64,000 nucleotides of DNA from a virus: the IMG/VR virus record IMGVR_UViG_3300032097_000030; one strand, 5' to 3'. The notes beneath the pieces are model-generated. The model was not told the origin of the DNA. It searched no databases and saw only the letters and a list, made by a program, of their open reading frames with translations. This document shows positions 7,754 to 23,324 of this stretch, piece by piece; position 1 is the first letter of the stretch, and every line of letters begins with the position of its first letter. Both the position numbers and the translations under genes were made by a program.

Positions 7754-9184
7754 TCAAATTCTTGTTCCGGCAAGAAAAACAACCACCGGTTTGCCATTAA
7801 GCCCGATTTCAATATGGTCAAGTGTCTTAAGCATCAATTCATATGGCATCGTTTCAATGCACCCGACTTCTTCTATCATGCACACCAGTTCCTTAGCCCT
7901 ATATGCAGCCAAAGTATCGTCGCCGTTTATGGTTTGCTGCCGCTTTGGCAAAAAGCTCTCTTTATCATCAACCAGTTGGTTCCATGCTTTGATGAATTCC
8001 TTTTCTGCAATCTCTGCATAAATCCTTTGACCATTCCGGGAGGTATCCTCCCCAACCGGTTTATAGCGTCCAGCCTTGAAGTTACTGCAAATCCAGTACT
8101 TCTTTCCATAATCCTCTTTTCGCTTTGATTTTCGAAGCAAAAATGTATGTCCGCATTCTTTGCAGATGATTTTCCCGCTGAGGGGATACTCCTCACTATG
8201 CCGGTGAAACTTATTCATGTAGTGGTCTTTAGCAAACTGTTCCTGCCGCTTCATTTCAAGCTGCGCGCATTTCCATGTGTCTTTATCGATAATTGCGGGA
8301 TGGGTGTTCTCAAAATAATATTGTGGCAATTCCCCTTCATTCTTCACACGCCGCTTTGTTAAATAATCTGCGTTATAAGTCTTTTGAAACCTTGTATCGC
8401 CCTTCATCTTTTCATTAGTAAGAACTTTTGTGATATGGCTTGCACACCACTCCTTCCCGCCATAAGCCATCAGTACTTTCTCTGTGGTCAGGCGCTTGGC
8501 AATCTGGAAGGTACCGAACCCGTCAAGGAACTCCTGGTAGATCCGGCGCACTACTTTGGCTTGTTCTTCATTAATGATGAGATTACCGTCTTCGTCCTTG
8601 TCATAACCCAGGAATTTACCGCTTGGAATGCTTTTGATATTACCTCTCTCATACTTTCTGCGGATGCCCCATTTAACGTTTTCTGAAATAGCAAGGCTTT
8701 CGGTTTGCGCTACTGCTGAGATCAGCGTCAAAAGCATCTCTCCTTCGCTTCTCATGGTGTGGATATTCTCCTTTTCAAAATAGACATCCACCCCGAGGGC
8801 TTTCAATTCCCTAATACAGTTAAGACAATCAAGAGTATTGCGACCGAAGCGGGAGAGGCTCTTAGTAATGATCATATCTATATGGCCATCTCTGGCGTCC
8901 TGCATCAGACGGTTAAAAGCATCGCGCTTTTTAAGGTCAGTTCCGGAGATGCCTTCATCAGCGTAAATTCCGGCAAAAGAGTAATCAGGATGTGATCTTA
9001 TATAATTTTCGTAATAGGTTATTTGTGCATGATAGCTTGAAAGTTGCTCGTCACTGCCTGTTGAGACCCGGCAGTAAGCCGCAACTCTCTGTTTATTCGT
9101 TTCATTCTTCTCGCCATCCGTTGTACTGGGTAACGGGTATAAGACGGAAATCCTTCTCGGACCTCTTCTTTCTACGGAGGTCAT
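7754..9184 (-). CDS. large serine recombinase
   Basis: AYCRVST, ITKSLSRFGRN, recombinase domain LGYDKDEDG...NEKMKGD, CKECG zinc ribbon. Confidence 0.92.
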   Translation of the reverse strand: MTSVERRGPRRISVLYPLPSTTDGEKNETNKQRVAAYCRVSTGSDEQLSSYHAQITYYENYIRSHPDYSFAGIYADEGISGTDLKKRDAFNRLMQDARDGHIDMIITKSLSRFGRNTLDCLNCIRELKALGVDVYFEKENIHTMRSEGEMLLTLISAVAQTESLAISENVKWGIRRKYERGNIKSIPSGKFLGYDKDEDGNLIINEEQAKVVRRIYQEFLDGFGTFQIAKRLTTEKVLMAYGGKEWCASHITKVLTNEKMKGDTRFQKTYNADYLTKRRVKNEGELPQYYFENTHPAIIDKDTWKCAQLEMKRQEQFAKDHYMNKFHRHSEEYPLSGKIICKECGHTFLLRKSKRKEDYGKKYWICSNFKAGRYKPVGEDTSRNGQRIYAEIAEKEFIKAWNQLVDDKESFLPKRQQTINGDDTLAAYRAKELVCMIEEVGCIETMPYELMLKTLDHIEIGLNGKPVVVFLAGTRI

Positions 9185-10304
9185 GATTCACCTCCTCCAG
9201 AACCATAGGCTCAGTTATTGCATAATCCTTCGAAAGCGCTTCTAATATTCCATCTGCTATGCGCATCCCTATACATACGGCCTTACCTTTTTGCTGATAG
9301 GTTGCACAAATCCAGCTTACATAGCCGCCTTGATGGATGACTCTGATGAGCGATGCTCCACAGTACGGACACTTTAATAAGCCGGTAAAGGGATATTCTT
9401 TCTTTTTTCTGCCTTCACGGATGGTTTGGGCCGCCTTCCACTTTGTTCTTGGAATAATTGCCGGATGGGCATTTTCAACGTAGTACTTGGGCTTTTGCCC
9501 TTTATTTAAAACTTGCTTACCCTCCTCATTAACGAAGGCTTTTTGCATCAAACAGTCGCCGGTATATTTCTCGTTGGAGATGATACTTAAAATCCGGTGC
9601 GAACGCCATGGATTCTTAGTATAGGTAGGGACACCTTCGTCATTTAGTATCTGCGCAATCTTATACCCGGAAATAACATTTAGATAGAGATTATAAATCC
9701 GCTTGACGATTTCTGCCTGCTTTTTATTTATGACCAGACTGCCATTTTCGTCCCGGTCGTAACCCATGAGGCGATTAACGTCTACCATCGCCTCTCCGCG
9801 CTTGAATTTGTTCTGCATGGCCCATTGAACATTGGCACAGACCGACTTTCGTTCTTCTTCCGCGATGGCTGCAAGGACAGTGAGCATTAATTCTCCCTCA
9901 GCATTTATGGTGTTGATGTTCTGCTCTTCGAAGATGACACCCACACCTGCATCTTTTAATTCGCGGACATATTTAAGCAGCATTAGAGTATTCCTTGCAA
10001 ATCGGGAAACCGACTTTGTAATGATAATATCTATTTCACCTGCTCTTGCTTTTTCAAGCATAGCCTTTAGGCCCGGCCGGTCTATTTTTAAGCCGGATAT
10101 ACCCGTGTCTGAGAAAATGCCGCAGAATTCATACGCAGGATTTGACTTTAGCTTTCGTTCATAGTATTCGGTCTGGTTTTGGAGGGAATTCATCTGCCCG
10201 GAGTGTTCAGTTGATACACGTACATAGGCACAAACTCTGATTTTTGGAGGTACGGTGAAGGGATTGAGGCTTCCTTTTATTTCAGTTATCTTTCTTTTCA
10301 CCAT
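9102..10304 (-). CDS. large serine recombinase
   Basis: AYVRVST, TKSVSRFARN, NEKYTGD, CPYCG. Confidence 0.92.
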   Translation of the reverse strand: MVKRKITEIKGSLNPFTVPPKIRVCAYVRVSTEHSGQMNSLQNQTEYYERKLKSNPAYEFCGIFSDTGISGLKIDRPGLKAMLEKARAGEIDIIITKSVSRFARNTLMLLKYVRELKDAGVGVIFEEQNINTINAEGELMLTVLAAIAEEERKSVCANVQWAMQNKFKRGEAMVDVNRLMGYDRDENGSLVINKKQAEIVKRIYNLYLNVISGYKIAQILNDEGVPTYTKNPWRSHRILSIISNEKYTGDCLMQKAFVNEEGKQVLNKGQKPKYYVENAHPAIIPRTKWKAAQTIREGRKKKEYPFTGLLKCPYCGASLIRVIHQGGYVSWICATYQQKGKAVCIGMRIADGILEALSKDYAITEPMVLEEVNHDLRRKKRSEKDFRLIPVTQYNGWREE

Positions 10305-10306
10305 GG

Positions 10307-11899
10307 TTATTCAATCCCCCATGGCAATTCAGTTCCGTCTTTAAACTGAAAAGTTATCTCTTCATTGGATTTTACAACCACTGCGTTAACAGTCGCACAC
10401 CAAAGGCTCTCGTTAAACTCGGTCAGTAGTTCTTTTTGCTCTTTAAGTTGGCGGATGAAGGCGTTCATCTGATTGCGCCTGGCTTTTAAGATTGCGATTT
10501 CGCTATTAAGCTCCTGCTTCCTGTTTTGCAGCTCGTTATATCTGGTAGCAAGGGGGGTGTACCTCTTGGTGTATTCCTTCTGGTCTATTGCTGACCTTGC
10601 GTTTTCAGCAATCAGCTTTTCCACTGCCGCTTCAATGACTGTGCATTCTTCATTGATTTTTTGGCTCTCCTTCTCCTGCTTTTTGAAGTCTGTAATCGTT
10701 ACAATTATTTCATTATAGGTGGATAAAATCTCATCTTTATTTTCAATAAGGCTGTTGAAGGCCTCGACAAAGGCTCGTTTCAGGACTTCTTCTTTCAGGT
10801 GAGGGGTGTTACAATAGGTTCTCTTTCTGAACTTATTATTGCACTGCCAAACGGTGTTGGCGTACTTGGTGGTGGAGTGCCATATCTTTCTGCCGTAAAA
10901 TCCGCCACAGTCCCCACAAACAATCCGGCTGGCAAAGCAGTTAATGGCGCTTGTATATCTTCCTGCCGCTTTACGCCGCCTGAACTCTTCTTGAACCAGT
11001 TCATATGTCTCGGGGCTTATGATTGCCGGATGACTGTTTTCCACATAGTACTGGGGAATCTCACCCTCATTAATTTTCTTTTTCTTGGTAAGGAAATCCA
11101 CTGTAAATGATTTCTGCAGCACAGCATCGCCTTTATATTTTTCATTCTGAAGGATACTCGTTACGGTACTGGGTTGCCATTTCTGTTTACCAGCAGGAGT
11201 CTTGATACCTTTCTCTGTAAGATGCTTTGCTATACCCGAAGGCGTCTTACCTTCAAGAAAGAGTTTGTAAATCAACCGGACAAACTCAGCTTCTTTTTCG
11301 ACAATTTTCGGCAAGCCATCTTCACCTTTTTCGTAACCAAGGAACTGTCCGTATGGCAGGCTGACTTTACCGTCGGCAAACCGTTTGCGCTGACCCCAGG
11401 TGACATTAGCGCTTATTGACCTTGATTCTTCTTGAGCCAAGCTTGACATAATTGAGATCAATAGCTCACCCTTACTGTCTAATGTGTAGATGTTCTCCTT
11501 TTCAAAATAAACCTCCACGCCTTTTTCCTTAAGCTGTCGGACAGTAGTCAGCGTATCAACAGTGTTCCTGGCAAATCTGGACACCGACTTGGTAATAATC
11601 AGGTCGATTTCACCGGCCAGTGCGTCAGCTATCATCTTGTTGAAACCATCACGCTTTTTTGTGCTTGTAGCTGAAATACCCTCATCAGCGTAGACCTCAA
11701 TGAACATCCAAGCTGGATTTGATTTGATGTGTCTAGTGTAATAATCCACCTGCGCCTCGTAGCTTGAGAGCTGTTCATCATTGTCCGTTGAAACCCTTGC
11801 GTAGGCAGCAACCCGTTTTGTTGCTGGAGTTCCGGCAGCTATGGGTGCAAAAAGTCCTGCTGTTGCCGGAATAACTTTTACTGCTCTTGCTGGATACAT
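10307..11899 (-). CDS. large serine recombinase, paralog of 20429..22018
   Basis: AYARVSTDNDEQLSSY, TKSVSRFARN, NEKYKGDA, CGDCG, coiled coil; long identical stretches with 20429..22018. Confidence 0.93.
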   Translation of the reverse strand: MYPARAVKVIPATAGLFAPIAAGTPATKRVAAYARVSTDNDEQLSSYEAQVDYYTRHIKSNPAWMFIEVYADEGISATSTKKRDGFNKMIADALAGEIDLIITKSVSRFARNTVDTLTTVRQLKEKGVEVYFEKENIYTLDSKGELLISIMSSLAQEESRSISANVTWGQRKRFADGKVSLPYGQFLGYEKGEDGLPKIVEKEAEFVRLIYKLFLEGKTPSGIAKHLTEKGIKTPAGKQKWQPSTVTSILQNEKYKGDAVLQKSFTVDFLTKKKKINEGEIPQYYVENSHPAIISPETYELVQEEFRRRKAAGRYTSAINCFASRIVCGDCGGFYGRKIWHSTTKYANTVWQCNNKFRKRTYCNTPHLKEEVLKRAFVEAFNSLIENKDEILSTYNEIIVTITDFKKQEKESQKINEECTVIEAAVEKLIAENARSAIDQKEYTKRYTPLATRYNELQNRKQELNSEIAILKARRNQMNAFIRQLKEQKELLTEFNESLWCATVNAVVVKSNEEITFQFKDGTELPWGIE

Positions 11900-12250
11900 G
11901 AAGCTTTCCTCCTTTCCAAATATTTTAGTTGTCTCTCCCGCGCCTGTTGTCGGGCTTTCTCATTCCAGCTTTCACTACGTGATTTGTTCTGCCACTCCTT
12001 TTGGACAGTCTGGCCGTCACGAAAAACAAATACCAGAAGGTTAGAATCAATAGCCTGTATTTCCTTAATCTTTTGCTCAAAGACCGTCTCATCAAACTTC
12101 GTAAGCCCTAAAACCTCTGTAACTATCGAAAGCAGGATGTCTTCGGGGATTTGCTTGGTGTGGCAGAATGCCTTGCCGAATTTCAGGTAAGTAGAGCAGT
12201 TCCACGAAATCCGTCCGTGTGTGGTCTTGCGTTTGTAGTTTTTACCGCAT
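11878..12250 (-). pseudogene. C-terminal fragment of an LSR (paralog of the end of 21897..23324)
   Basis: CGKNYKRK...WNCSTYL...TKQIPEDILLSI...KEWQNKSRSESW nearly identical to the prophage copy. Confidence 0.85.
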
Positions 12251-12400
12251 ACTTCTCGCATGGATTTTTTTGAATCTAGAGCAAGTATGTATGAATTATG
12301 TATGACTCTATCCATGATAGCATCTGCGATGGTAGGATCGGGGAATAGGTCATACCATTTTGTGTGAGCGATTTGCCCTGAAAGCACGGTAGCGTTTCTA
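12251..12400 (-). pseudogene. istB: IS21-family helper ATPase C-terminal remnant fused in frame to the LSR fragment
   Basis: SGQIAHTKWYDLFPDPTIADAIMDRVIHNSY...KSMRE is the typical IstB C-terminal motif (W...DPT.ADAI.DR..H). Confidence 0.75.
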
Positions 12401-12453
12401 GACGACCATTTTACCCCTTAAAACAGGAAAACCCCTTGTATCAAGGAGTTTTC

Positions 12454-12507
12454 ATTGTATCAAAGTTTGAGTTTTTATTTGTCTAATGACTAAAATATTG
12501 ATACAAT
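12454..12507. other. intact attP-like site for a large serine recombinase
   Basis: Perfect 10-bp inverted repeat ATTGTATCAA (12454-12463) / TTGATACAAT (12498-12507) symmetric about TG 12480-12481, the point where homology to the 2183 copy begins. Confidence 0.65.
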
Positions 12508-12652
12508 TTAGCGATATTGATTTACGCTAAAAAGTACGGGATTAACGCAAAAAAGTACACACCCCCCGGGCGAAATTCAATAAGCTTAAGGTCTTAGAAA
12601 TTCGTCCCTCAACTCTCCTAAAATAGAAGTGTTTTCTCTTCGAGTGAAAGGA
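12480..12652 (+). repeat. ~170-bp direct repeat, copy 2
   Basis: Aligns with 2183..2355. Confidence 0.9.
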
Positions 12653-12834
12653 TTATGTGAATAAGCTTGATCTATGCAACCGAATGCACTTATCCGAGAG
12701 CTTTTCTGAAAATCAAGTTTTTCAAAACCACATAACTTCGCTGATTTTTTTTAGAATAGTGCTTCTTCAGGTTTCTATCTATTCTCATGTCCCCTTAGTC
12801 AATAACCTTTTCCCCTTAACCGTAGGTACCCAGA

Positions 12835-13818
12835 TTAAAATCTAATCGGTATTTTTGAATGATTAACTTTTACATCGTAACCTTTATTAGTCAATTGCAT
12901 TAAAAGCCTTTTTTGCTTTTTCCCATTAAAAAGCGGAGAAACTGTAATTTCACATATTGCCATTTTATCAAAAAGAGGTACAAAAATATACTTTGGAATC
13001 CCAGCGTTACTACCATATCTAAGTTCAGTTTTGGCAAATGGACTTAATGCTGTTTTATCTTCATTTAATGGTAAGTGAATTGCAAGCCTTACCTCTTTCT
13101 CATGTGAAAAATTCTTTGATTTAAAAGCACATCGCCATTTAAACAGTTCGCATGAAATTGCTAATTTAGTTTTTGATAATTGTGTATCATCTTTATGACG
13201 GTATCTATATAATGCTTGTACAAAATCTTTCAATATATCGTCTTTTTCATGGTCGTCATATTCAACAACAATTAATTCGCTTAAGAAATTTCTCTTATAA
13301 GGATGATAGTGAAAGGCTTCCTTCAATTTTAAAGAAGAAAAACCTAAGTTCCAACCCTCATATTGGCCGTTTTTAAGATAATAATTCCACATTGGTAATG
13401 AGTCTGAGAGCGTTGAAAAACAGAATATATATGTAACATATTCAGATATGCAACATTCTTTATATTCTACTCCATCTATTATTAGGGGTGGAATTGCTTT
13501 ATGGATAAAAGGAAATTCCTTAAAGGGTAAAACATTAATTATTGAATTGAAATAATCTTTATCTATATTTTTGTTTTCCAATAACTGCTTACATATATTC
13601 TTATAATATTCAATTATATAACTTCCATCTGTTGTATCATTTACACAATCTATTCTTGTAAATCTTAATTCTATGTTTTCATTTTTCAAAATACCATCTA
13701 CACCCTTTGGCGATGTATAATGATACTGTAATTTATCATTAGGAATAACAGAGACTGATTGGAGTAGTTCTTGTTTCAATTTAATATCTTCTATACAACT
13801 GCAATCAGAAAAGTCCAT
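12835..13818 (-). CDS. DUF2971-like protein
   Basis: YHYTS..G..GIL, ND..DG, FCFS...DSLPMWNYY, K...F..E.EVR motif series. Confidence 0.75.
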   Translation of the reverse strand: MDFSDCSCIEDIKLKQELLQSVSVIPNDKLQYHYTSPKGVDGILKNENIELRFTRIDCVNDTTDGSYIIEYYKNICKQLLENKNIDKDYFNSIINVLPFKEFPFIHKAIPPLIIDGVEYKECCISEYVTYIFCFSTLSDSLPMWNYYLKNGQYEGWNLGFSSLKLKEAFHYHPYKRNFLSELIVVEYDDHEKDDILKDFVQALYRYRHKDDTQLSKTKLAISCELFKWRCAFKSKNFSHEKEVRLAIHLPLNEDKTALSPFAKTELRYGSNAGIPKYIFVPLFDKMAICEITVSPLFNGKKQKRLLMQLTNKGYDVKVNHSKIPIRF

Positions 13819-13895
13819 TTCTAGCCACCCTTAAAACAAATTGATCTTTTTATACTAATAGTCATTCGCATTATTACCCTAATGAGAAGTACAAT

Positions 13896-14025
13896 ATTTA
13901 TATATCGTCCCCGGAATTCCTGACGTGTCCACCCCAATAGGGTGCGTAATACTAAATCCCTAAACACATCCCAAATCTGCAAGTCTTGTGAAAAAGGGCT
14001 GGAGTGCTCGTGTTATATGCCGTTC
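13896..14025. repeat. degenerate attC-like site downstream of HEPN gene
   Basis: Gene-sense strand: GGCATATAAC...AGCACTCC...CGTCAGGAATTCC...GACGATATAT; its far end resembles 14888..14919. Confidence 0.45.
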
Positions 14026-14043
14026 TCAGCCTAAAATTAATAT

Positions 14044-14865
14044 CTAAACGTGATAATGATTTCTGTGATATGAATTCGTATTTATAAAACTAACTGCAAA
14101 AGTATCTGCAGCAATATTCACTAAACTTAGTAAACAATAAGACTTTTTGCATTCTTCTATCGCTTTTTCAGCATTTAATGTCGGGCTCCTTAATATCTGT
14201 TTTTTGCCGAGATCAAACTCATCATTTCCATCTAACATATACATTAAAGGTGAGAATGCATGAGTTACTTCATCTCTCCATCTCTTAATATCCCCATATC
14301 TACGTTTAGCTTCAAGTAATACTTTCCAATCATCTCTATTTTTTAGTTTAAAAGGATCTCCATCTAGAATTCGGCGTTTATTATCGCCATATTTGAGTTT
14401 TATTGAGTCAATAACATTGTTAAAATAAAAAGGAGCATCAATTATTCCATAAAACACAAAAGCTAAATATAGGCCTACACTATCCAATAAACTACAGCTT
14501 CTTACTTGAAAATCACCATAGCTTTGCCAAAAATGTTGACTAAAGTCAGCTGATTTATTTTCGATAGCAGATATATAAGGTTCTATGCTTCCAGTTTTAT
14601 AAAAAAGAAGTAACATACCCATAGCACGCTCAATCTCTCTAAATCTGTACGCATTATTAAGCCACAAATTTATGAATGTCTCAAATTCATTATCTGCTAT
14701 TTTTGCTTCAGCAAATATTTCATCCTCATCTTTTCCGTTTAATAACTTTTCTTTCCTATTCATAATGTCCCTAGGAATTACAAATTCACTTAACTCCTTA
14801 TTAATCTGTTTGTCTAAGTTTTCAACAATCCTCTTTCTCAAATCTATTAATTCCACATTATTCAC
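14044..14865 (-). CDS. HEPN-domain protein (Cthe_2314-like), putative RNase
   Basis: RDEVTH (RxxxxH) followed by AFSP; helical composition. Confidence 0.65.
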   Translation of the reverse strand: MNNVELIDLRKRIVENLDKQINKELSEFVIPRDIMNRKEKLLNGKDEDEIFAEAKIADNEFETFINLWLNNAYRFREIERAMGMLLLFYKTGSIEPYISAIENKSADFSQHFWQSYGDFQVRSCSLLDSVGLYLAFVFYGIIDAPFYFNNVIDSIKLKYGDNKRRILDGDPFKLKNRDDWKVLLEAKRRYGDIKRWRDEVTHAFSPLMYMLDGNDEFDLGKKQILRSPTLNAEKAIEECKKSYCLLSLVNIAADTFAVSFINTNSYHRNHYHV

Positions 14866-14887
14866 CTCATTGGTTTAATAAATATTG

Positions 14888-14919
14888 GAATGGCATGTAA
14901 CGTCTTGGTGTTCCCGACG
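14888..14919. repeat. partial attC-like site upstream of HEPN gene
   Basis: Gene-sense CGTCGGGAACACCAAGAC-GTTACATGCCATTC; 12/14 inverted match to the downstream core. Confidence 0.45.
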
Positions 14920-15076
14920 CCCCTGATCTTACGCTCATGGCCGGAACCGGTTTCCTGCTATCTTTATCTATTTTGTCATCTTTATTCAAACAACAATCCT
15001 TATAAATTATTCCACTACCACACGGACAGGGCTCAGTCTTTCGTATATAAATTAGTAAAAAACAAAATAATTCTCC

Positions 15077-15649
15077 TTACATTTCAATAATATAGAATTT
15101 ACTATGGGCGTTTAAATTTTCCCATACAAATTCATGTCTACCCGATAGAGATATGAAGTCGACATTCTTTGCCCGACCGGTAGGTTTGTAAATGTCTCCA
15201 TAGACAGCATATTCTTGTCTGAAATATCTATAAATACCATCGTTTATTCTTCCTTCGTAAAAGGGTCTATCCGATACTAGAACAACACAGGCAGTTTTAT
15301 TAAATCCCCGATCCTTAAGTTCTTCCATAAATTTTATGTCTTTTGCAAAAGAGTACATTTGCTCAGGATACTGACCATTCATTGGACATTTCATCTCTAT
15401 AGCATACTTTTCATGTTTGTCTTGTGTAAAGATTGTAACATCAATTTCCTTTTTTATCGTTTTGTTATCTCGTGTGAAAAATGAAACATTACGCTCAAAT
15501 TGCACTTTATACTGCGGCAGCATGGTTCTTAAGTAAATCCCCAGTTCATGTACCAGGCTGAATTCATTATAAATTTCTATGTTTTTGTCTCTAACAAACT
15601 TAAAAAAGCTTTCAACTAACCTTTTCAATTCTAACAACAAAGCCACCAC
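15077..15649 (-). CDS. PD-(D/E)xK-like nuclease-fold protein
   Basis: YNEFSLVHELG...ERN...EIDV...AIEMK. Confidence 0.55.
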   Translation of the reverse strand: MVALLLELKRLVESFFKFVRDKNIEIYNEFSLVHELGIYLRTMLPQYKVQFERNVSFFTRDNKTIKKEIDVTIFTQDKHEKYAIEMKCPMNGQYPEQMYSFAKDIKFMEELKDRGFNKTACVVLVSDRPFYEGRINDGIYRYFRQEYAVYGDIYKPTGRAKNVDFISLSGRHEFVWENLNAHSKFYIIEM

Positions 15650-15740
15650 CTGTAATCACAAAGTCTTCCCCATTGATTTTCTGAAACAATCGTACAATCT
15701 AGATATCCATAGAAAATTAGACTAAGCCCCCCCTTTGGGC

Positions 15741-16196
15741 TCATAAAAGAGATGTTATCATCTTTTCAAATAAGTATGGACGAAGCCTCGGCATGTTTTT
15801 CTTGGACAAATTAAGCCCATACTCTGGTTTGCTTTTTAACTCTTCATAGTCCTTATCGCAAAAGAGGTCATTGGGGGCTTTCCAAGTAACTGCAGGAATA
15901 AGATAAGCGTCCGGCAGCCTGCCATCTTCAAATATAAATAGTACAAGATAATTATCCTGGTTAGTTATGTTCCACTTTTCCTTTTACATAAAAACATAAT
16001 TGGTTTGACGTACTGACTTTACTTGAATCTCGAAAAATCGTCCTTCCTTCGTTTTTGCTATAAAATCTATTCCATGATCATCAACCTCTGATGTATATAC
16101 CTCAAATCCGTAAGAAGCAAATTCCATCTTCGCATAATACTCCGCATATCTACCAAGCTGCAGTTTATTTAACCGCGACCAAATTGTATTAGGCAT
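15741..16196 (-). pseudogene. DUF4365-like PD-(D/E)xK nuclease with in-frame TAA at 15984-15986
   Basis: G..AE...DDHGIDF...EIQVKS; frame continues after the stop (YVFM*KEKWNI...SKPEYGLNLSKK) to TGA 15741. Confidence 0.7.
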
Positions 16197-16375
16197 CTCA
16201 ATTCTCCATTAATAAATTTTGTTGAGCAAATTTCACCATATACATTTTTATCTTACCACCTTTTCCCATATTTTTTAAGAGCCTATTTGTCCAACAACTC
16301 ATTAGTCCGATCTACAGTTGGATCAAACCTGCCAGCCTTTTTTATTCCCCAATAAATTCAAGTGGTATTTTTACC

Positions 16376-17191
16376 TCATAACGCAGTATAATCGATAATC
16401 TGTTCAGGTGTAATAGTAACCCCACTCCCCATATAAGCAATAATTTCCGAACCGCCACGTTCGAAACTTCTGCTAACGGCATTTGAAATCAGCCATTTCT
16501 TAAGTATTAACCTACTCTCCATATCTTCCCAATAATTGTCTTCATAATCATAAAAAGAATACCAAGCAAATTGATCGAAATCAGCAAGAAAGGTAACAAT
16601 ATACCCTTTGCTCTTTGTGCACCAAATTTTTTCAACCTCTTTTATGCGTGGAATAAGACTTGATAAGTTCATTAAAAATTCCGGTCTGCAATGAATATCT
16701 GTTCCATAACGGGCAATATCATCTATTGAAAAAAAGGCATTCACTTGCGGATCGAAATATATTTTTCTAGCAACTTCTCTAATGCGTTCTTCTTCAGATG
16801 TAAGCCTAAATCGACCCCTAAATTTATCATAGTCAATATCAATTACTTTCTCGCCTATAACGAGGGCTTTATTCTCGATATCAAATTTAACACCATATTC
16901 TAATAATAAATTCCTTAATGTTGTCTGCTCCGACAAAACCGCCTGTAAATTTTTTATCCCTTGCATTTTAATTTCCAAACAATCATCCCAGTTAGATGTT
17001 ACGTGAAGAGCCTTATATTTTAAGTGATCAATGTTAGTCGAGTCGATGTAGTCCAATCGTTTATTCCAAAATGAATCAAAATCATTATTGCATTCGATTA
17101 TATACTCATCTATAAAACCGCTACCTGTAATATTAAAAAAATCTTGAATGAACTTGAAAGCTGCGTCCGGTGTGCTAATATCAAAAATCAA
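16376..17191 (-). CDS. hypothetical protein, possible ADP-ribosyltransferase-like fold
   Basis: 271-aa ORF; LHVTS...IKMQGIKNL and VNAFFS resemble H-x-T...I...G-L and aromatic-S elements. Confidence 0.4.
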   Translation of the reverse strand: MIFDISTPDAAFKFIQDFFNITGSGFIDEYIIECNNDFDSFWNKRLDYIDSTNIDHLKYKALHVTSNWDDCLEIKMQGIKNLQAVLSEQTTLRNLLLEYGVKFDIENKALVIGEKVIDIDYDKFRGRFRLTSEEERIREVARKIYFDPQVNAFFSIDDIARYGTDIHCRPEFLMNLSSLIPRIKEVEKIWCTKSKGYIVTFLADFDQFAWYSFYDYEDNYWEDMESRLILKKWLISNAVSRSFERGGSEIIAYMGSGVTITPEQIIDYTAL

Positions 17192-17227
17192 TTGATCATC
17201 ACCAAATTCTTAAAAGATTTAACTTTA

Positions 17228-18889
17228 CTACCACCAATGCTGGCCAAACTTTTTTAACGCTTTCTGATCCTCGTTTTTTTCGTGCTCCCGCTTACCAAAC
17301 AACTCATCTTCTCTAGCCACAATTGGATCCAACCAATCAGCTTTTTTCTTTGCCCAATCTATCCAGTTCACCGTTTCTTCATCCATTCCATCTTGGCTAG
17401 CAGAATCCTCCATAGCTTTGACATAGGCTCTTATTCTAGACGCTCTCTCATAGTCCAAGGCCGCGTTCTCCAGCGCAATTGTCCGCTCGACTTCTTCATT
17501 ATATCGGTTCCGGCGTTCTTCCTCCCGCCTCTCTTCTTCCATACGTTTACGCTCGGCTTCTTCACTGGCTTCACGCTCAAGTCTAAGAACTTGGGATTCT
17601 TCGTAAAGTGCTATTAAAATATCACCTAGCCTGGATTCAATAGACATCTTATCGGTTTCTCTGAAATGTCTGCGTTTCCGAATACTAACTCTCAGCCGCC
17701 CATTGAATACGTAGTCATACTTTCTGATTTGGGGTTCACTGGCCCATGTATTATGGCGTTTTGCGTCTTCATAAAGAAGCAAGTCCTTTGCTTCTTGCCT
17801 AGTGATTTCATGCTTTATTTTATCTTGGGACTCAGAAACTTCAAAATGCACATACTCACCTCTAATCTGGAGAGATAGATCATCATTGACAGTACCACCT
17901 AGGTTTTCAACCTGTCGAAAAAGAGCATCAAGTATGCGATAAACTCGTGGGAGGGTTTCATTTGAAATAACTCCGGCAAGAAAGGGCGGACGTTTAGAAT
18001 AGTAATAATTATTGAAGCCTTTTTGTGCGCCTTCAGGTCTCATGTTATTTTTATTCCATTCTTTGACCACAGACTTGTAGGCTGTTATCTTTTTGTGCAG
18101 TTTCACATTTTCAGGTGATACCTTGATTTGTTGTGCAGCAAGTAGTACTTTTTCTCTCTCGGCTTCTGATAAAAAAGCGAGCGGCTGCGAAGCTGTATTA
18201 GTTTCCTTTTCTCCTTCAAAGGTTCTTGCCCCAACTATTTCAGTGACCCCCTTTGTTTTTGGGAGCGGGGTCTTTTTGGGTTTTGCCCCAGCACGAATCT
18301 TTGACCAGTAGCCACGGGGTGGAACAGGTACATTAAGCGATTTACAGATTTTATGTATTGCAACGTCTGACACTCCATATTGAGCAGCAACATCAACAAC
18401 CGGATTTGCCCACACCTGTTCATATAATTTTTCACGGTTATAAATGTTATGCTTACCATCCACAGTACGATAAATATGCTGCTTGTCACGAGGTGTACCC
18501 GAACCTTCAGTGACCAGCTGATTATCAGTTGCCTCAGATTCTTCTGTAGTGTTAACTTCGGAATTTAAGTTTTCCTCAACTTTGACCTCTTTACTAACTT
18601 CGGTAACAGTAGTAAATACGGCAGTGCGTTTTGACCTTTTCGGAGCCGAGTTGTCGGGCAGCGTAACTTCAGTAATCGAGGATTCCGGCAACGGAGTTTT
18701 TGTTACGGTTTTGCCGAAATTCAATTGAGTCCAGTATCCCGATGGTGGGTATGGGATATTTGTTTCTTTGCACAACTTAAGTAATTTGGCATAAGGCACA
18801 TTATATTTCTTGGCGACACCGGACACGGAGATCTCCCAGATCTCATTATACAATTGTTCTCTGGATAATTTTGTGGTTTGCTCTGTCAA
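17228..18889 (-). CDS. hypothetical mobile-element protein with two PPxGYW HTH-like repeats and a coiled coil
   Basis: SREQLYNEIW...PPSGYW and NREKLYEQVW...PPRGYW; E/R-rich coiled coil; C-terminal WIDWAKKKADWLDP. Confidence 0.75.
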   Translation of the reverse strand: MTEQTTKLSREQLYNEIWEISVSGVAKKYNVPYAKLLKLCKETNIPYPPSGYWTQLNFGKTVTKTPLPESSITEVTLPDNSAPKRSKRTAVFTTVTEVSKEVKVEENLNSEVNTTEESEATDNQLVTEGSGTPRDKQHIYRTVDGKHNIYNREKLYEQVWANPVVDVAAQYGVSDVAIHKICKSLNVPVPPRGYWSKIRAGAKPKKTPLPKTKGVTEIVGARTFEGEKETNTASQPLAFLSEAEREKVLLAAQQIKVSPENVKLHKKITAYKSVVKEWNKNNMRPEGAQKGFNNYYYSKRPPFLAGVISNETLPRVYRILDALFRQVENLGGTVNDDLSLQIRGEYVHFEVSESQDKIKHEITRQEAKDLLLYEDAKRHNTWASEPQIRKYDYVFNGRLRVSIRKRRHFRETDKMSIESRLGDILIALYEESQVLRLEREASEEAERKRMEEERREEERRNRYNEEVERTIALENAALDYERASRIRAYVKAMEDSASQDGMDEETVNWIDWAKKKADWLDPIVAREDELFGKREHEKNEDQKALKKFGQHWW

Positions 18890-18998
18890 AATCAGCCCTC
18901 CTTTCTTTCCTTATTTCTCTGGTTCGGGGAAATATGTTCGGCATCAGTGGTCTCCTCTGTTGAATCTGAATCCAGCGAAAACGCGTATTCAAATAGTT

Positions 18999-19334
18999 TT
19001 ATGTCCCTTGTTCCGCGCTTTCGCTTAATATAAAAAGCAGGTCTTTTTTCATTTCTTCAAATTGCGAAATGATGGTGTTAAGGTTCTTCTCAATGTTTTC
19101 AACCTGAACATTGGTTATCTTTCCATGCTTATATGCAATAAGTCGCTCATCAATAATTTGGTAACTCCAGCTGTCGGTATACCGGTCCTCATTACGAATT
19201 GCAAATCCAATTGGTAATAAGTCATTTCTCATTCCGAGGCTCACAGCCGTAGGTGATATTCCAAGATAATCAGCCGCTATTTTGCATGTGATTTTGGAGA
19301 AACTCCTTATTTCTTCATCTGTATATTTACCCAT
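18999..19334 (-). CDS. small HTH protein, excisionase-like
   Basis: AADYLGISPTAVSLGMRNDLLPIGFA...WSYQI; RBS GGAGGTG before ATG 19334. Confidence 0.55.
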   Translation of the reverse strand: MGKYTDEEIRSFSKITCKIAADYLGISPTAVSLGMRNDLLPIGFAIRNEDRYTDSWSYQIIDERLIAYKHGKITNVQVENIEKNLNTIISQFEEMKKDLLFILSESAEQGT

Positions 19335-19530
19335 GTGCTTCACCTCCCCCTTTGTGTGCTTTTTAATATTGTATAATTATTCCATATAATTATCTACCTC
19401 AAATTTGCATCATAGGCCTGCGCCTAAAGCCCTAGCTTCAATAACGGTAAAAAGATTATTTTATTGATACGTTTCCGCAATTATTTTTGAATATTTATAT
19501 TGTACTTTGGGGGTTTTGTGTTATAAACCC

Positions 19531-19560
19531 TTGACTATGTATTAATGTCTGTGATAGTAT
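19531..19560 (+). promoter_or_regulatory. putative sigma-A promoter
   Basis: TTGACT-N18-TAGTAT with TG extension, 29 nt before ATG 19590. Confidence 0.5.
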
Positions 19561-19589
19561 AAATTTACCAAAAGGGGTGTGATCTTCCT

Positions 19590-19949
19590 ATGCAAACTAT
19601 TCAAGAGAATTTTAAAGCAAGATCTACTTACAGTATCCGGTTAAACGACAAACTGGCTGAAATAGCGCAAAAAACAGGTCTCCCACTGAGCAACGTGATA
19701 GAAATCTGCCTTGCAAATTTCGCCACCTTAAATGATGATGAAAAAATTCAATTTATTGCGGAAAACGATCCTGGAAAAATAAATGCTTCAGAATTAAAAG
19801 AACCCACTTTTAATTATGCTGATGAAGCTGTTTGTAAAGCTAAGGACTCTTTAGGGGATAAGGCAAGCAAGATGAGTAATAAAATACTCATCGCAATCGG
19901 CCTTGCGTTATTAGCTGCTTTCCTTTTCAAAGGGGAACAAAATGAATAA
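19590..19949 (+). CDS. ribbon-helix-helix-like protein with C-terminal hydrophobic helix
   Basis: TYSIRL-NDKLAEIAQKTG-LSNVIEICL; ILIAIGLALLAAFLF. Confidence 0.55.
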   Translation: MQTIQENFKARSTYSIRLNDKLAEIAQKTGLPLSNVIEICLANFATLNDDEKIQFIAENDPGKINASELKEPTFNYADEAVCKAKDSLGDKASKMSNKILIAIGLALLAAFLFKGEQNE

Positions 19950-19971
19950 TCATAGGGGAGGGGAGGTGAAT

Positions 19972-20070
19972 ATGAGTACGGCAAGGAGAAAAAAAACTAG
20001 GCATTTTAGCCTAGTATTACCCCAAGAGAAAAAACTAACTTGGGCAGGCCTATTAAAGCCTGTGTATTAA
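19972..20070 (+). CDS. 32-aa basic peptide (not in ORF track)
   Basis: MSTARRKKTRHFSLVLPQEKKLTWAGLLKPVY; strong RBS GGGAGGTG. Confidence 0.45.
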   Translation: MSTARRKKTRHFSLVLPQEKKLTWAGLLKPVY

Positions 20071-20129
20071 AAAACTGTAAATATATAATACCATAGTTTT
20101 TTCTCCCGGGCAAAGAAAGGAGGAGAAAA

Positions 20130-20282
20130 ATGAGCACAGATCGAAGAGCCGGCAAAAAGAATGTTCCACATGTCGGAAAACAGCCACGTTCTCGTACGCA
20201 AAAGGGAACCTGGCGGAAAAAAAGATCTGACGCGGGCAAAAAGCAGGAAGGAAAAAGTCTTTTAGATAAACTACTTGGGTAA
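20130..20282 (+). CDS. 50-aa highly basic peptide (not in ORF track)
   Basis: MSTDRRAGKKNVPHVGKQPRSRTQKGTWRKKRSDAGKKQEGKSLLDKLLG; RBS AGGAGG; followed by hairpin. Confidence 0.6.
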   Translation: MSTDRRAGKKNVPHVGKQPRSRTQKGTWRKKRSDAGKKQEGKSLLDKLLG

Positions 20283-20300
20283 TCACATAAAAAATTTTTT

Positions 20301-20324
20301 AGGGGGAGTATATCCCCCCTTTTA
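20301..20324. terminator. probable bidirectional intrinsic terminator
   Basis: AGGGGGA-gtata-TCCCCC(C)T stem with T-run after and A/T-runs before. Confidence 0.6.
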
Positions 20325-20428
20325 TGCGTTAAGCATAGCCACTCATATTGCTTATATTCAATAAAAAAACTACTGCATTGGCATCATTAGATAAGCATTT
20401 CTGTAATATAACGGGTTTAGTTTTGTTC

Positions 20429-22018
20429 CTATATCTTTGAATTCAGTTCCATTCCGTCCTTAAAAGTAAAAACAATCTCATGCTCAGGATGAACCGTCAC
20501 CGCATCCACTGTTGCATTCCAAAGTTCCTCATCAAATTCAGTCAAGAGCGTGTCACTCTTCTCCAACATCCGAATAAAAGCCCCTATACTTTCACGTTTG
20601 GCATTTCGTTCCAGCCGCTTATTATCAATCTCATCAAGTCCTTTTTTGGCGGCTTCATAACGTTCCACCAAGCTTGTATAATGCTGCTGGTATTCCCCCT
20701 GGTCAAGAGCAGAATGGGCGTTTTCCTCCACACACTTTCGGAGCAGTTCTGCCGCAACCTCACTTTCACTTTGGAACTTGGCGCTTTCTTTTTCAAACTC
20801 TGACGTATCGGTTAGGTCATTAATAATGGCTTCATAGTTTTGCAGGATTTCCCCTTTATTCTCAAGTAGGCTGTTAAAAGTATCTAAAAATGCCTCTTTG
20901 ATTTTATCTTCATAAAGGTGCGGTGTCTGGCACTTATTATTGTTTTTAAACTTATGATTGCATTGCCAAATGGTCCTGCGGTATTTGCTGGTAGAATGCC
21001 ACACCTTACTGCCGAAGAAGCCCCCACACTCACCACAGATAATTTTTCCTGAAAAACAACCACCACCCGTCTTATATCCCTTGGCATTTTTCCGTTTCTT
21101 AAGCTCATGCTGGACAAGATCGAAAACTTCCGGCGTTATGATTGCAGGATGACTGTTTTCCACGTAATACTGTGGAATCTCACCTTCATTGACCTTCTTT
21201 TTCTTGGTAAGAAAATCAACGGTGAAAGTCTTCTGAAGCATCGCGTCACCTTTATATTTTTCATTCTGAAGGATGCTCGTTACGGTACTGGTTTGCCATT
21301 TCTGTTTGCCCGATGGCGTCAGTATGGAACTTTTCGTAAGATGCCTTGCTATACCCGAAGGAGTCTTACCTTCAAGGAACAATTTATAAATCAACCGCAC
21401 TGTTTTGGCTTCCGATTCAACAATCTTAGGAAGCCCATCATCACCCTTTTCGTAACCAAGGAATCTTCCGTAGGGTAGGCTAATCTTTCCATCAGCAAAC
21501 CGCTTTCTTTGACCCCAGGTAACGTTCTCTGAAATACTCCGACTCTCTTCCTGGGCCAAGCTGGACATGATGGTTATAAGCAGTTCACCCTTGCTGTCCA
21601 TGGTGTGGATGTTTTCCTTCTCGAAGTAGACTTCCACGCCTTTTTCTTTAAGCTGTCGGACGGTGCTAAGAGTATCAACAGTATTTCTGGCAAATCGGGA
21701 TACTGATTTTGTAATAATAAGGTCGATTTTACCGATCAGAGCGTCGGCTATCATCCTGTTGAAACCTTCACGCTTTTTTGTGCTTGTAGCTGATATACCT
21801 TCATCGGCATAGACTTCTACGAATTCCCAAGCCGGATTTGATTTGATGTGCCTCGTGTAATAATCTACCTGCGCCTCGTAGCTTGAAAGCTGTTCGTCAT
21901 TGTCCGTTGAAACCCTTGCGTAGGCGGCAACCCGTCTTGTGGCTGGAGTTCCGGCAGTTATCGGTGCAAAGCGTTCTGCTGTTGCCGGAATAACTTTTAC
22001 TGCTCTTGCTGAACACAT
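20429..22018 (-). CDS. large serine recombinase (prophage integrase module)
   Basis: AYARVSTDNDEQLSSY, NEKYKGDA, CGECG. Confidence 0.93.
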   Translation of the reverse strand: MCSARAVKVIPATAERFAPITAGTPATRRVAAYARVSTDNDEQLSSYEAQVDYYTRHIKSNPAWEFVEVYADEGISATSTKKREGFNRMIADALIGKIDLIITKSVSRFARNTVDTLSTVRQLKEKGVEVYFEKENIHTMDSKGELLITIMSSLAQEESRSISENVTWGQRKRFADGKISLPYGRFLGYEKGDDGLPKIVESEAKTVRLIYKLFLEGKTPSGIARHLTKSSILTPSGKQKWQTSTVTSILQNEKYKGDAMLQKTFTVDFLTKKKKVNEGEIPQYYVENSHPAIITPEVFDLVQHELKKRKNAKGYKTGGGCFSGKIICGECGGFFGSKVWHSTSKYRRTIWQCNHKFKNNNKCQTPHLYEDKIKEAFLDTFNSLLENKGEILQNYEAIINDLTDTSEFEKESAKFQSESEVAAELLRKCVEENAHSALDQGEYQQHYTSLVERYEAAKKGLDEIDNKRLERNAKRESIGAFIRMLEKSDTLLTEFDEELWNATVDAVTVHPEHEIVFTFKDGMELNSKI

Positions 22019-23324
22019 GTAGCTTTCCTCCTTTCCAGTATTTTAGCTGGCGTTCCCGGGCCTGCTGACGGGCTTCTTCACTCCAGCTTTCACTGCGTGA
22101 TTTGTTCTGCCATTCCTTTTGGACAGTGCGGCCGTCACGGAAAACAAATACCAGCAGGTTAGAATCAATAGCCTGTATTTCCTTTATCTTTTGCTCAAAT
22201 ACCGTTTCATCAAACTCTTTAAGTCCTAATACCTCTACAGCTATCGAAAGCAGGATGTCCTCGGGGATTTGCTTGGTATGGCAGCTATCCTTGCCATATC
22301 GCAGGTAGGTAGAGCATTTCCATGAAGCCCGCCCGCATGCAGCTTTTCGGTTATAATTTTTCCCGCATTTGCTGCAGACAATTTTACTGGTGAAAGGGTA
22401 TTGCTTGGGGTCATTTTTTCCAGCATTACTATCTCTGTTTTTAGCCATAATCCCCTGAGCTTTTTGGAAAGTAATCTCATCAATTATTGGTGGATGGGTG
22501 TTTTCAGCATAATATTTTGGAAGCATACCTTTGTTGCGCACCAATGTCTTTGTCAAATGGTCTTTAACATACTTTTTCTGAAGCAACGCATTCCCTGCGT
22601 ATTTTTCATTTTTGATGATCTCCGCAACTCTCTCCGAGTTCCAAGTACCCCCTCGAGGTCGTGCAACACCCATACCAGACAACTTTTTTGCAATCAAGGT
22701 GCAGCCCATACCGCCGATATAATCTGCAAAAATCATGCGAACTATTTCTGCCTGTTTGGCGTCAATTTCAATTTCACCATTTTCAATGCGATACCCATAC
22801 AAAAACCTTAAGTTTACAAGCTCTCCGTCAGCAAAAGCTTTTCGAATACGCCACTTGCAGTTTTCACTGACCGAACGGCTCTCTTCTTGCGCAAAAGAAG
22901 CGAGGATGGTAAGCATTAACTCACCATCCCCGCTCATTGAGTGGATATTTTCTTTTTCAAAATAGACATCAACATTGATGCTCTTTAACTCTCGTACCGT
23001 TTCTAACATAGTAACCGTATTCCTTGCGAACCTGGAAATGGACTTGGTTAGAACTAAGTCTATTTTACCGTTTCTGCAGTCGCTCAAGAGCCTCTGGAAC
23101 TCTGCTCTGTTATCTTTGGTGCCGGTCATTGCTTCATCTGCATAAACACCGGCATACTCCCATCCGCGTTGCTTTTGAATATAGTCGCTGTAATAACTGA
23201 TTTGAGCTGATATAGAGTGAAGCATTGCATCTTTGCCACTGGATACTCTGGCATAGGCGGCAACGCGCTTCTTAACTGGTATTGTTGCCTTTATTGGCTC
23301 GATTTTTCGGATGGTTCGCGCCAT
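21897..23324 (-). CDS. large serine recombinase; C-terminus extended by apparent 1-nt deletion near 22037
   Basis: AYARVSSG, TKSISRFARN, NEKYAGNA, CSKCG; tail diverges from the paralog at 11878. Confidence 0.9.
   Translation of the reverse strand: MARTIRKIEPIKATIPVKKRVAAYARVSSGKDAMLHSISAQISYYSDYIQKQRGWEYAGVYADEAMTGTKDNRAEFQRLLSDCRNGKIDLVLTKSISRFARNTVTMLETVRELKSINVDVYFEKENIHSMSGDGELMLTILASFAQEESRSVSENCKWRIRKAFADGELVNLRFLYGYRIENGEIEIDAKQAEIVRMIFADYIGGMGCTLIAKKLSGMGVARPRGGTWNSERVAEIIKNEKYAGNALLQKKYVKDHLTKTLVRNKGMLPKYYAENTHPPIIDEITFQKAQGIMAKNRDSNAGKNDPKQYPFTSKIVCSKCGKNYNRKAACGRASWKCSTYLRYGKDSCHTKQIPEDILLSIAVEVLGLKEFDETVFEQKIKEIQAIDSNLLVFVFRDGRTVQKEWQNKSRSESWSEEARQQARERQLKYWKGGKLHVFSKSSKSYSGNSRTLCTDNCRNSSHKTGCRLRKGFNGQ

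Follow-up and report, generated by a model that had tools for sequence, protein, structure and literature searches.

An orphan HEPN-like gene as probable exchangeable cargo in the putative defence slot of a large-serine-recombinase prophage

Introduction

How did a lone HEPN-like gene come to lie in the 64,000-nucleotide stretch of viral DNA analyzed here (the window; IMG/VR record IMGVR_UViG_3300032097_000030)? An initial annotation of positions 13896-14919 proposed that the gene was packaged like an integron cassette, although without an integrase, that it encoded a probable RNase toxin, and that it had been captured by a large serine recombinase (LSR) element. If true, this proposal would be notable, as a Firmicute-type genome lacking an integrase would then contain an integron-type cassette.

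In integrons, the attC site forms an imperfect hairpin, some 57-141 nt long, between the R'' (RYYYAAC) and R' (GTTRRRY) cores. The stem of its bottom strand is interrupted by extrahelical bases, its central spacer is left unpaired, and the GTTRRRY sequence that starts a cassette is complementary to the R'' core of the cassette's own attC. Prophages and satellites may also carry defence hotspots beside their integrase genes, as is known from the P2/P4-like elements of E. coli. HEPN proteins are recognized by their Rx4-6H signature (in its shortest form R-x4-H), and HEPN toxins usually come with a cognate partner. We therefore analyzed the protein family, the flanks of the gene, the contexts of its homologues, and the surrounding mobile element.

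Materials and Methods

Since Rfam contains no attC family, a covariance model of attC sites, R3, was built for this analysis. This home-made model comprises 19 attC sites from class-1 integrons, about a dozen of which are distinct. Its seed of six 60-nt sites, annotated with the R''/R' stem, the unpaired spacers, and the L''/L' stem with two extrahelical bases, was iterated twice. A scan of IMG/VR with the class-1 5'-CS primer yielded a single real integron (contig L020), and the 13 other contigs matching this primer contained neither attC nor 3'-CS and were set aside. The training sites were thus taken from plasmid records, and belonged to the cassettes aadB, aadA1, aadA2, aadA5, aadA16, orfD, orfF, aac(6')-Ib, blaGES-5, blaIMP-22, blaOXA-2, dfrA12, dfrA17, dfrA27, and arr-3. 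When applied to true sites held out of the training set, R3 scored the aadA7 attC of L020 at 74.5 bits; of the two metagenomic sites in contig L004, one reached 40.0 bits (E 1e-7) and the other 27.4 bits (E 2e-4). For the published IntegronFinder model, a sensitivity of 61-88% on planted sites and of 96% on INTEGRALL sites has been reported (PMC4889954).

The chance level of the repeats flanking the gene was estimated at 1500 random places of the complete genome in which it lies (a single contig of 3.72 Mb), taking at each place two 150-nt flanks located 822 nt apart. The eight PF18730 proteins used for hhalign comparison came from genomes of the same phylum. The genomic contexts of homologues were compared on contigs L003 and L004, the contigs of homologues P0002-P0008 lying outside this comparison.

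Results

The orphan ORF probably encodes a HEPN protein

The HEPN-like gene is located on the minus strand at positions 14044-14865 and encodes a protein of 273 aa from a GTG start codon at 14865; the protein-database call uses an alternative GTG at 14856, giving 270 aa. The ORF is AT-rich (~30% GC) and is bordered by GC-richer patches at ~13896-14030 and ~14880-14960. Its protein family comprises nine clusters in a set of 5.8 billion proteins. An exhaustive HMMER profile search with the family among 1.84 billion representatives recovered nine of them, several being fragments, and revealed no remote relatives and no bridge to other families. No homologue was found in the genome-contig set, in the viral-contig set, or in three other genomes of the same taxonomic family. 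The family alignment contains the invariant blocks FWxSYGDF, SCSLLDSxG, WRxExxHxFSP, and SYHR. In particular, R197-x4-H202, an Rx4H motif read as WRDEVTH in this protein and as WRDEvxH in the alignment, is invariant in 9/9 members.

The 273-aa protein alone matched nothing in Pfam, PADLOC, or NCBIfam. The members of the family gave sub-threshold Pfam matches to three different HEPN families, all spanning the motif region, with E values of 0.015-0.12 and scores of 12.8-15.8 bits for cut-offs of about 27; for HEPN membership, a score of 15.7 bits compares with a curated Pfam threshold of 27.1. Comparison of the family with the eight PF18730 members by hhalign gave an E value of 2e-4, with a probability of only 47%, over 120 columns, and paired SCSLLDSVG with FSLLDKLG and WRDEVTH with RRNAEIH, the motifs being in register. 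The closest structural cluster in the ESM Atlas was 'Cthe_2314 family HEPN' (TM 0.58/0.63 over 204 residues), in which 81% of the members carry PF18730. A PF05168 HEPN cluster was also present among the structure neighbours, and a PF18730-bearing cluster was among those listed by the ESM Atlas feature search. The AlphaFold (AF2) model was all-helical and of mediocre confidence (pLDDT 63.5); Foldseek against the PDB found nothing beyond generic helical bundles, and a wide VIA-align search likewise found generic helical bundles only (Z ≤8.8).

As four independent, individually weak lines agree, the 273-aa ORF most probably encodes a HEPN superfamily protein that is closest to the Cthe_2314-like HEPN proteins. 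The HEPN assignment of the initial annotation is supported by the invariant Rx4H, the hhalign comparison with PF18730, and the ESM Atlas neighbour, which make the ORF very probably HEPN-like. The protein is a putative RNase that may play a role in defence or act as a toxin, and this very rare and divergent family is a reasonable candidate for a single-gene defence or toxin effector.

The resemblance to PF18730 concerns the all-helical architecture, the length (~250-270 aa), the xSxLDxxG helix and R-x4-H found in register, and the nearest ESM Atlas cluster; both families are found in mobile or defence contexts of Bacillota. However, the family described here stays under the Pfam gathering threshold, its motif is R-D-E-x-x-H instead of R-N-x-x-x-H, and it possesses additional invariant blocks (FWxSYGDF and SYHRN) and an N-terminal coiled helix.

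A short SEC-C ORF precedes the HEPN-like gene

A 65-aa ORF containing the SEC-C zinc motif CPCGSGIIYKDCC is located upstream on the same strand (14867-15064), with a TTG start codon at 15064 and a GGAG ribosome-binding site. It matches the SEC-C domain PF02810 (31.5 bits for a cut-off of 20.4), and its DNA resembles that encoding the N-terminal SEC-C of 226-aa proteins found on Bacillus plasmids. Among proteins of 35-114 aa, neither the ORF nor its tail had any homologue but itself. Given this tail without relatives, the ORF probably represents what is left of the 5' part of a truncated gene encoding an N-terminal SEC-C domain. Its stop codon (14867) falls among the ribosome-binding and start signals of the HEPN-like gene.

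Such a position of the stop codon would be expected if the two genes formed a toxin-antitoxin pair, in which the translationally linked SEC-C peptide would be the antitoxin or the regulator of a HEPN toxin, and the GC-rich patches would be regulatory; a partner of this kind would also be in keeping with the usual organization of HEPN toxins. We consider this explanation unlikely, because the small ORF is devoid of homologues in its size class, no such ORF precedes the homologues on contigs L003 and L004, the latter forming a single-gene cassette (see below), and no MNT-type nucleotidyltransferase was detected with Pfam. The gene does recall the HEPN-MNT type II toxin-antitoxin systems in that an Rx4H HEPN putative RNase is carried by a mobile element. 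Unlike in these systems, there is no MNT partner, and the neighbours are the unconserved SEC-C peptide and a DUF2971 protein, with no NTase domain found by Pfam.

The repeats flanking the gene are at chance level

All the letters on which the cassette proposal was based are present on the gene strand (minus). Of the two arms of the 12/14 inverted repeat, the upstream one, GTTACATGCCATTC (14888-14901), corresponds to codons R-Y-M-P-F of the SEC-C ORF, and the downstream one, GAACGGCATATAAC (14012-14025), lies 19 nt past the stop codon of the HEPN-like gene. The upstream copy of the CGTC...GACG 'echo', CGTCGGGAACACCAAGACGTT (14899-14919), also lies within the SEC-C ORF, and the downstream copy, CGTCAGGAATTCCGGGGACGAT, is found at 13904-13925. 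The upstream 'GTT core' of the supposed cassette is thereby coding sequence of the 65-aa SEC-C ORF.

The similarity between these sequences did not exceed that of random places with the same geometry, of which 5.7% reached 12/14 or better for inverted matches and 8.5% for direct ones. For ungapped direct 21-mers, the real flanks reached 13/21 at best, the mode of the background. In gapped local alignments of the flanks, evaluated with 1000 shuffles, the direct comparison had a z of -0.7, and the best inverted match lay elsewhere, in an AT-rich 10-mer (z 1.7, p 0.09). Among the 87 inverted repeats found in an 8-kb region, the 14-nt pair did not rank with the 25 longest. In the whole genome, 20 matches per 14-mer were counted at up to two mismatches vs. 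a calculated expectation of ~24, and each of the 21/22-nt echo motifs was single. Arrays of TAACGTC...TTCCCGACG had been suggested as a check, and this string proved unique in the genome; BLAST of either flank against the complete 3.72-Mb genome returned only the flank itself. Although real as letters, both the CGTC...GACG echo and the 12/14 inverted repeat are best taken as chance similarities.

A pattern combining both echoes, CGTC-N10-13-(G/C)ACG-WTWYAT, was found genome-wide only at the two flanks. These two copies were themselves the source of the pattern, and ~1.8 chance matches are expected, so that it does not constitute evidence and was set aside.

The flanks are not attC sites

When folded as single-stranded DNA, the regions 13896-14045 and 14866-14990 gave z values of -0.67 to +0.51 relative to shuffles on both strands, and no bottom-strand hairpin with extrahelical bases was obtained. 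Candidate sites extending from ATATAAC to either plausible 3' core folded less well than shuffled sequence (z +0.6 to +1.7). With R3 used without filters over the whole 64-kb window, the best score was 11.7 bits (E 3.4), with no such match near the HEPN-like gene and no array (at least two attC within 4 kb). A search restricted to the two flanks gave at best 1.7 and 2.1 bits, compared with 27-75 bits for the true sites held out of the model. The sequence GTTACAT, which lies inside the SEC-C ORF, departs from the GTTRRRY consensus at one position and pairs with ATATAAC at 6/7 positions. By eye, the 3' flank looked similar to the first attC of L004 (GCACT..CCC / GGG..GTG / TTAGGG), but this likeness was discarded, the alignment having a z below 1 and R3 scoring 1.7 bits on the opposite strand.

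In parallel, no integron integrase was found in the genome with TIGR02249. The best score, 92 bits for a cut-off of 265, is the ordinary level of Xer-type recombinases, at which 14/14 control genomes also stayed. None of the Firmicutes genomes surveyed with IntegronFinder contained a complete integron (PMC4889954).

The flanks of the HEPN-like gene are not attC sites, apart from a slight chance of a very atypical or badly decayed site that the home-made R3 would miss, and no integron machinery is acting at this locus. The initial annotation was right that no integron integrase is present, but not about attC-like packaging. It had itself named two observations that would speak against its proposal, and both were made: the hairpin is absent, and neither the rest of the genome nor three other genomes of the same taxonomic family contain similar sites, apart from an unrelated 26-nt identity described below. 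Since the cassette proposal fails these tests, the locus appears ordinary in its mobility.

Homologues of the gene are found in other mobile contexts

The protein has a homologue, P0002, with 79% identity, and more distant ones on contigs L003 (54%) and L004 (49%). The L004 homologue, from a metagenome contig, is the only ORF between two attC sites placed around it in the correct orientation (40.0 and 27.4 bits) and is a genuine single-gene integron cassette. The HEPN-like family thus indeed circulates in integron cassette pools, and the intuition of a cassette is right for the family, though not for this locus. The L003 homologue lies between IS3-type transposase genes. No similarity was detected between the flanks of the gene in the window and those of the L003 and L004 homologues, including the attC sites of the latter (all z <1), so that homology ends at the ORF. 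One family is therefore encountered in three mobile contexts, being packaged with attC sites in L004, bordered by IS3 genes in L003, and placed in the cargo slot of an LSR prophage in the window, an illustration of how effectors of this kind pass between capture systems.

These contexts raise the question of whether the gene could be a decayed or secondary-site cassette, inserted by IntI at a GTT in the SEC-C gene, with GTTACAT...ATATAAC as the last trace of R'/R''. The true attC sites of L004 show that a related gene can be packaged in this way, but the flanks in the window are unlike these sites. The orientation of the 14-nt repeat fits an R' at the 5' boundary and an R'' directly behind the stop codon, although an equally good inverted repeat is found at more than one in twenty random places (the 5.7% given above). 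The 19-nt distance between the stop codon and ATATAAC is typical; however, GTTACAT violates the GTTRRRY consensus, and a secondary-site insertion retains the whole 3' attC hairpin, which is missing here. Moreover, the genome has no IntI, no other attC was found in the window or in the genome, and the Firmicutes survey (PMC4889954) reported no complete integron. This explanation is thus very unlikely. We attach an equally slight chance to its broader form, according to which the family would be a stand-alone anti-phage effector moving between integron pools, IS-flanked units, and LSR-prophage slots, the copy studied here being a former cassette with an attC eroded to GTTACAT/ATATAAC. If true, the eroded cassette would bear witness to gene flow from integrons to prophages, into a lineage without integrons.

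Finally, a non-autonomous transposable unit, MITE-like or IS-derived, carrying the HEPN-like gene between the 14-nt arms as terminal inverted repeats can practically be dismissed: imperfect inverted repeats closely bracket the ORF, and the L003 homologue lies between IS3-type transposase genes, but no target-site duplication was seen by eye beside the arms, no second copy of the arms or of the unit is present in the genome, the repeat is at chance level, and one arm is inside the SEC-C ORF.

The gene lies in a variable slot of an LSR prophage

The third element of the initial annotation, capture by an LSR element, agrees with the Pfam domains, the ORF map, and the prophage relatives, which place the gene in the cargo of such an element. 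Two LSR genes of this prophage, encoding proteins of 529 and 475 aa, are located on the minus strand at 20429-23324. The 529-aa protein contains the Resolvase, Recombinase, and Zn_ribbon_recom domains (Pfam), and the 475-aa ORF was assigned by its ~42% identity to Pfam-scanned LSRs. Phage-sized genes extend from 23.5 to ~60 kb in the ORF map, and an LSR triplet is found at 7754-11899. An att-like palindrome at 12454-12507 (inverted repeat I6, not assigned to a strand) marks the end of the element, and its right half recurs at 2182-2223 (42 nt, 95% identity). This palindrome with its half-site repeat, together with the LSR genes, indicates that the AT-rich region from 12.5 to 20.4 kb is the integrase-proximal end of the prophage, with the HEPN-like gene lying ~1.5 kb inside this end.

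Between the LSR genes and the SEC-C ORF, a conserved gene of 190 aa (15077-15649, minus strand), in which a D...E-x-K nuclease-like motif was noticed by eye, anchors a slot of variable content. Homologues with 66-71% identity are present in nine IMG/VR prophage contigs, always directly downstream of the LSR genes and upstream of variable genes, and at the DNA level nothing beyond this 190-aa gene is shared. In the window, the slot contains the SEC-C stub, the HEPN-like gene, and, as second cargo gene, a DUF2971 gene (12835-13818, minus strand; Pfam PF11185, E 9e-8) with weak PADLOC matches to PDC-S31/DndF. In the related prophages, it is occupied by a GmrSD_N/DUF7834 and GmrSD_N/GmrSD_C pair (L052), by a PDC-S11 candidate defence protein (L056), or by unknown genes (L053 and L059). 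A frameshifted pseudogene of a DUF4365/Mrr-like nuclease, at about 15740-16196 upstream of the 190-aa gene, indicates that the region is in flux. No tRNA or tmRNA was found in the 64-kb window by ARAGORN, Rfam gave nothing relevant over 12300-20500, and a promoter/terminator scan gave nothing in the flanks of the HEPN-like gene.

Judged by its gene content, the anchored slot follows the pattern of a prophage defence hotspot. A variable, putative defence slot with a conserved 190-aa anchor is thus now identified in a group of serine-recombinase prophages.

Discussion

Taken as a whole, the sequence comparisons and structural models lead us to estimate at about 80% the probability that this gene, encoding an orphan Cthe_2314-like HEPN putative RNase, is exchangeable cargo in the defence slot of an LSR prophage. 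The cargo would sit in a variable slot that has the integrase module on one side and the attachment-site end of the prophage on the other. The HEPN-like and DUF2971 genes most likely came by ordinary recombinational module swapping in a prophage defence hotspot, since related prophages keep the 190-aa anchor beside the LSR genes and then carry differing defence genes. The same swapping event would also have left the truncated start of the SEC-C gene upstream. In this scheme, the protein would be a stand-alone Rx4H RNase, silent until phage infection or another stress triggers RNA cleavage, and would act as an abortive-infection or toxin-type effector.

The slot resembles known defence hotspots by its conserved anchor next to the integrase, followed by genes that differ between related prophages and include recognized defence genes. 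It differs from the P2/P4-type hotspots by its LSRs, its Gram-positive-type lineage, and its uncharacterized 190-aa anchor, and its role in defence is a putative one, judged from the genes it carries.

Single-gene anti-phage cassettes have been reported in sedentary chromosomal integrons, such as 'Esos', which has a HEPN-like domain only (bioRxiv 10.1101/2024.07.02.601686). Esos, likened here by its description only, is the closest functional analogue of the HEPN-like gene. Like an integron cassette, the locus consists of a small, promoterless-looking single HEPN-like gene with GTT upstream and AAC just downstream; unlike an integron cassette, it has no attC hairpin, covariance-model signal, array, or IntI.

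One further observation concerns a stretch downstream of the gene (13886-13911, minus strand), which is 96% identical over 26 nt, with an exact 21-nt core, to a single site in genome G003, from another genus of the same taxonomic family. The stretch is single-copy in each genome, and a 19-mer of it is absent from IMG/VR. The gene context in G003 is unrelated. Upstream of the site lie an HNH gene and a Gly-rich ORF; the downstream side has a small membrane ORF and a radical-SAM gene. In both genomes, the stretch is preceded by a CGTC-N12-(G/C)ACG mini-hairpin. It is not an attC, and may represent either a regulatory site common to both genomes or a scar of recombination.

A homologue of the HEPN-like gene in an integron cassette

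A 282-aa homologue of the window's HEPN-like gene, sharing 49% identity with it, was found between two attC sites on the metagenome contig L004 (SDBT01131969.1). These sites, located at L004:495-564 and L004:1536-1621, scored 40.0 and 27.4 bits, respectively, with an attC covariance model whose training set consisted of class-1 sites only. Both bracketing sites are genuine, and the L004 homologue is therefore a true single-gene integron cassette. The Pfam scan gave no match for the ORFs neighbouring this homologue.

In the window, a 26-nt stretch with the core ACGATATATAAATATTGTACTTC (13886-13911, minus strand) was nearly identical to L070:1501-1526, which corresponds to G003:C139:25439-25464 in a genome of the same family but of a different genus. 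The G003 counterpart is a single site whose gene surroundings are unrelated to those in the window, and a CGTC-N12-(G/C)ACG mini-hairpin precedes the 26-nt stretch in both genomes alike.

About 5 kb past position 1 of the window, and so a short way beyond its edge, there are at least two adjacent tyrosine-recombinase ORFs (343 and 332 aa; G000:C1:827386-828871). They were among the weak matches to the NCBIfam integron-integrase model TIGR02249 and are not integron integrases.

The cargo slot and the stacked elements

An uncharacterised 190-aa gene (15077-15649, minus strand), in which a D...E-x-K motif was spotted by eye, had homologues with 66-71% identity across nine IMG/VR prophage contigs (L051-L059), adjoining large serine recombinase (LSR) genes. 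This anchor gene is a marker of a slot with variable defence cargo, which in these contigs was a GmrSD pair in some cases, and PDC-S11 or genes of unknown kind in others.

The chimeric 169-aa ORF at 11878-12387 (minus strand) consists of an IstB-like C-terminal piece fused to a segment that matches the 475-aa LSR (21897-23324) over its residues 320-429 with 84.5% identity. It is a recombinase-gene fragment where the two stacked elements join. A 42-nt direct repeat (12479-12520 and 2182-2223, 95% identity) takes in the att-like palindrome's right half (palindrome at 12454-12507), and its copies are probably attachment-site copies bounding an element at 2.2 to 12.5 kb.

Upstream of the slot, a DUF4365/Mrr_cat_2-like PD-(D/E)xK nuclease gene (about 15740-16196, minus strand) is interrupted about 70 aa in, by either a frameshift or a stop, its C-terminal part running on in another frame. 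A 68-nt direct repeat with 71% identity was also observed, one copy (16293-16360) in the gap downstream of a 271-aa gene and the other (17298-17365) in the 3' part of a 553-aa gene, which points to either C-termini that are related or a duplication of part of the sequence.
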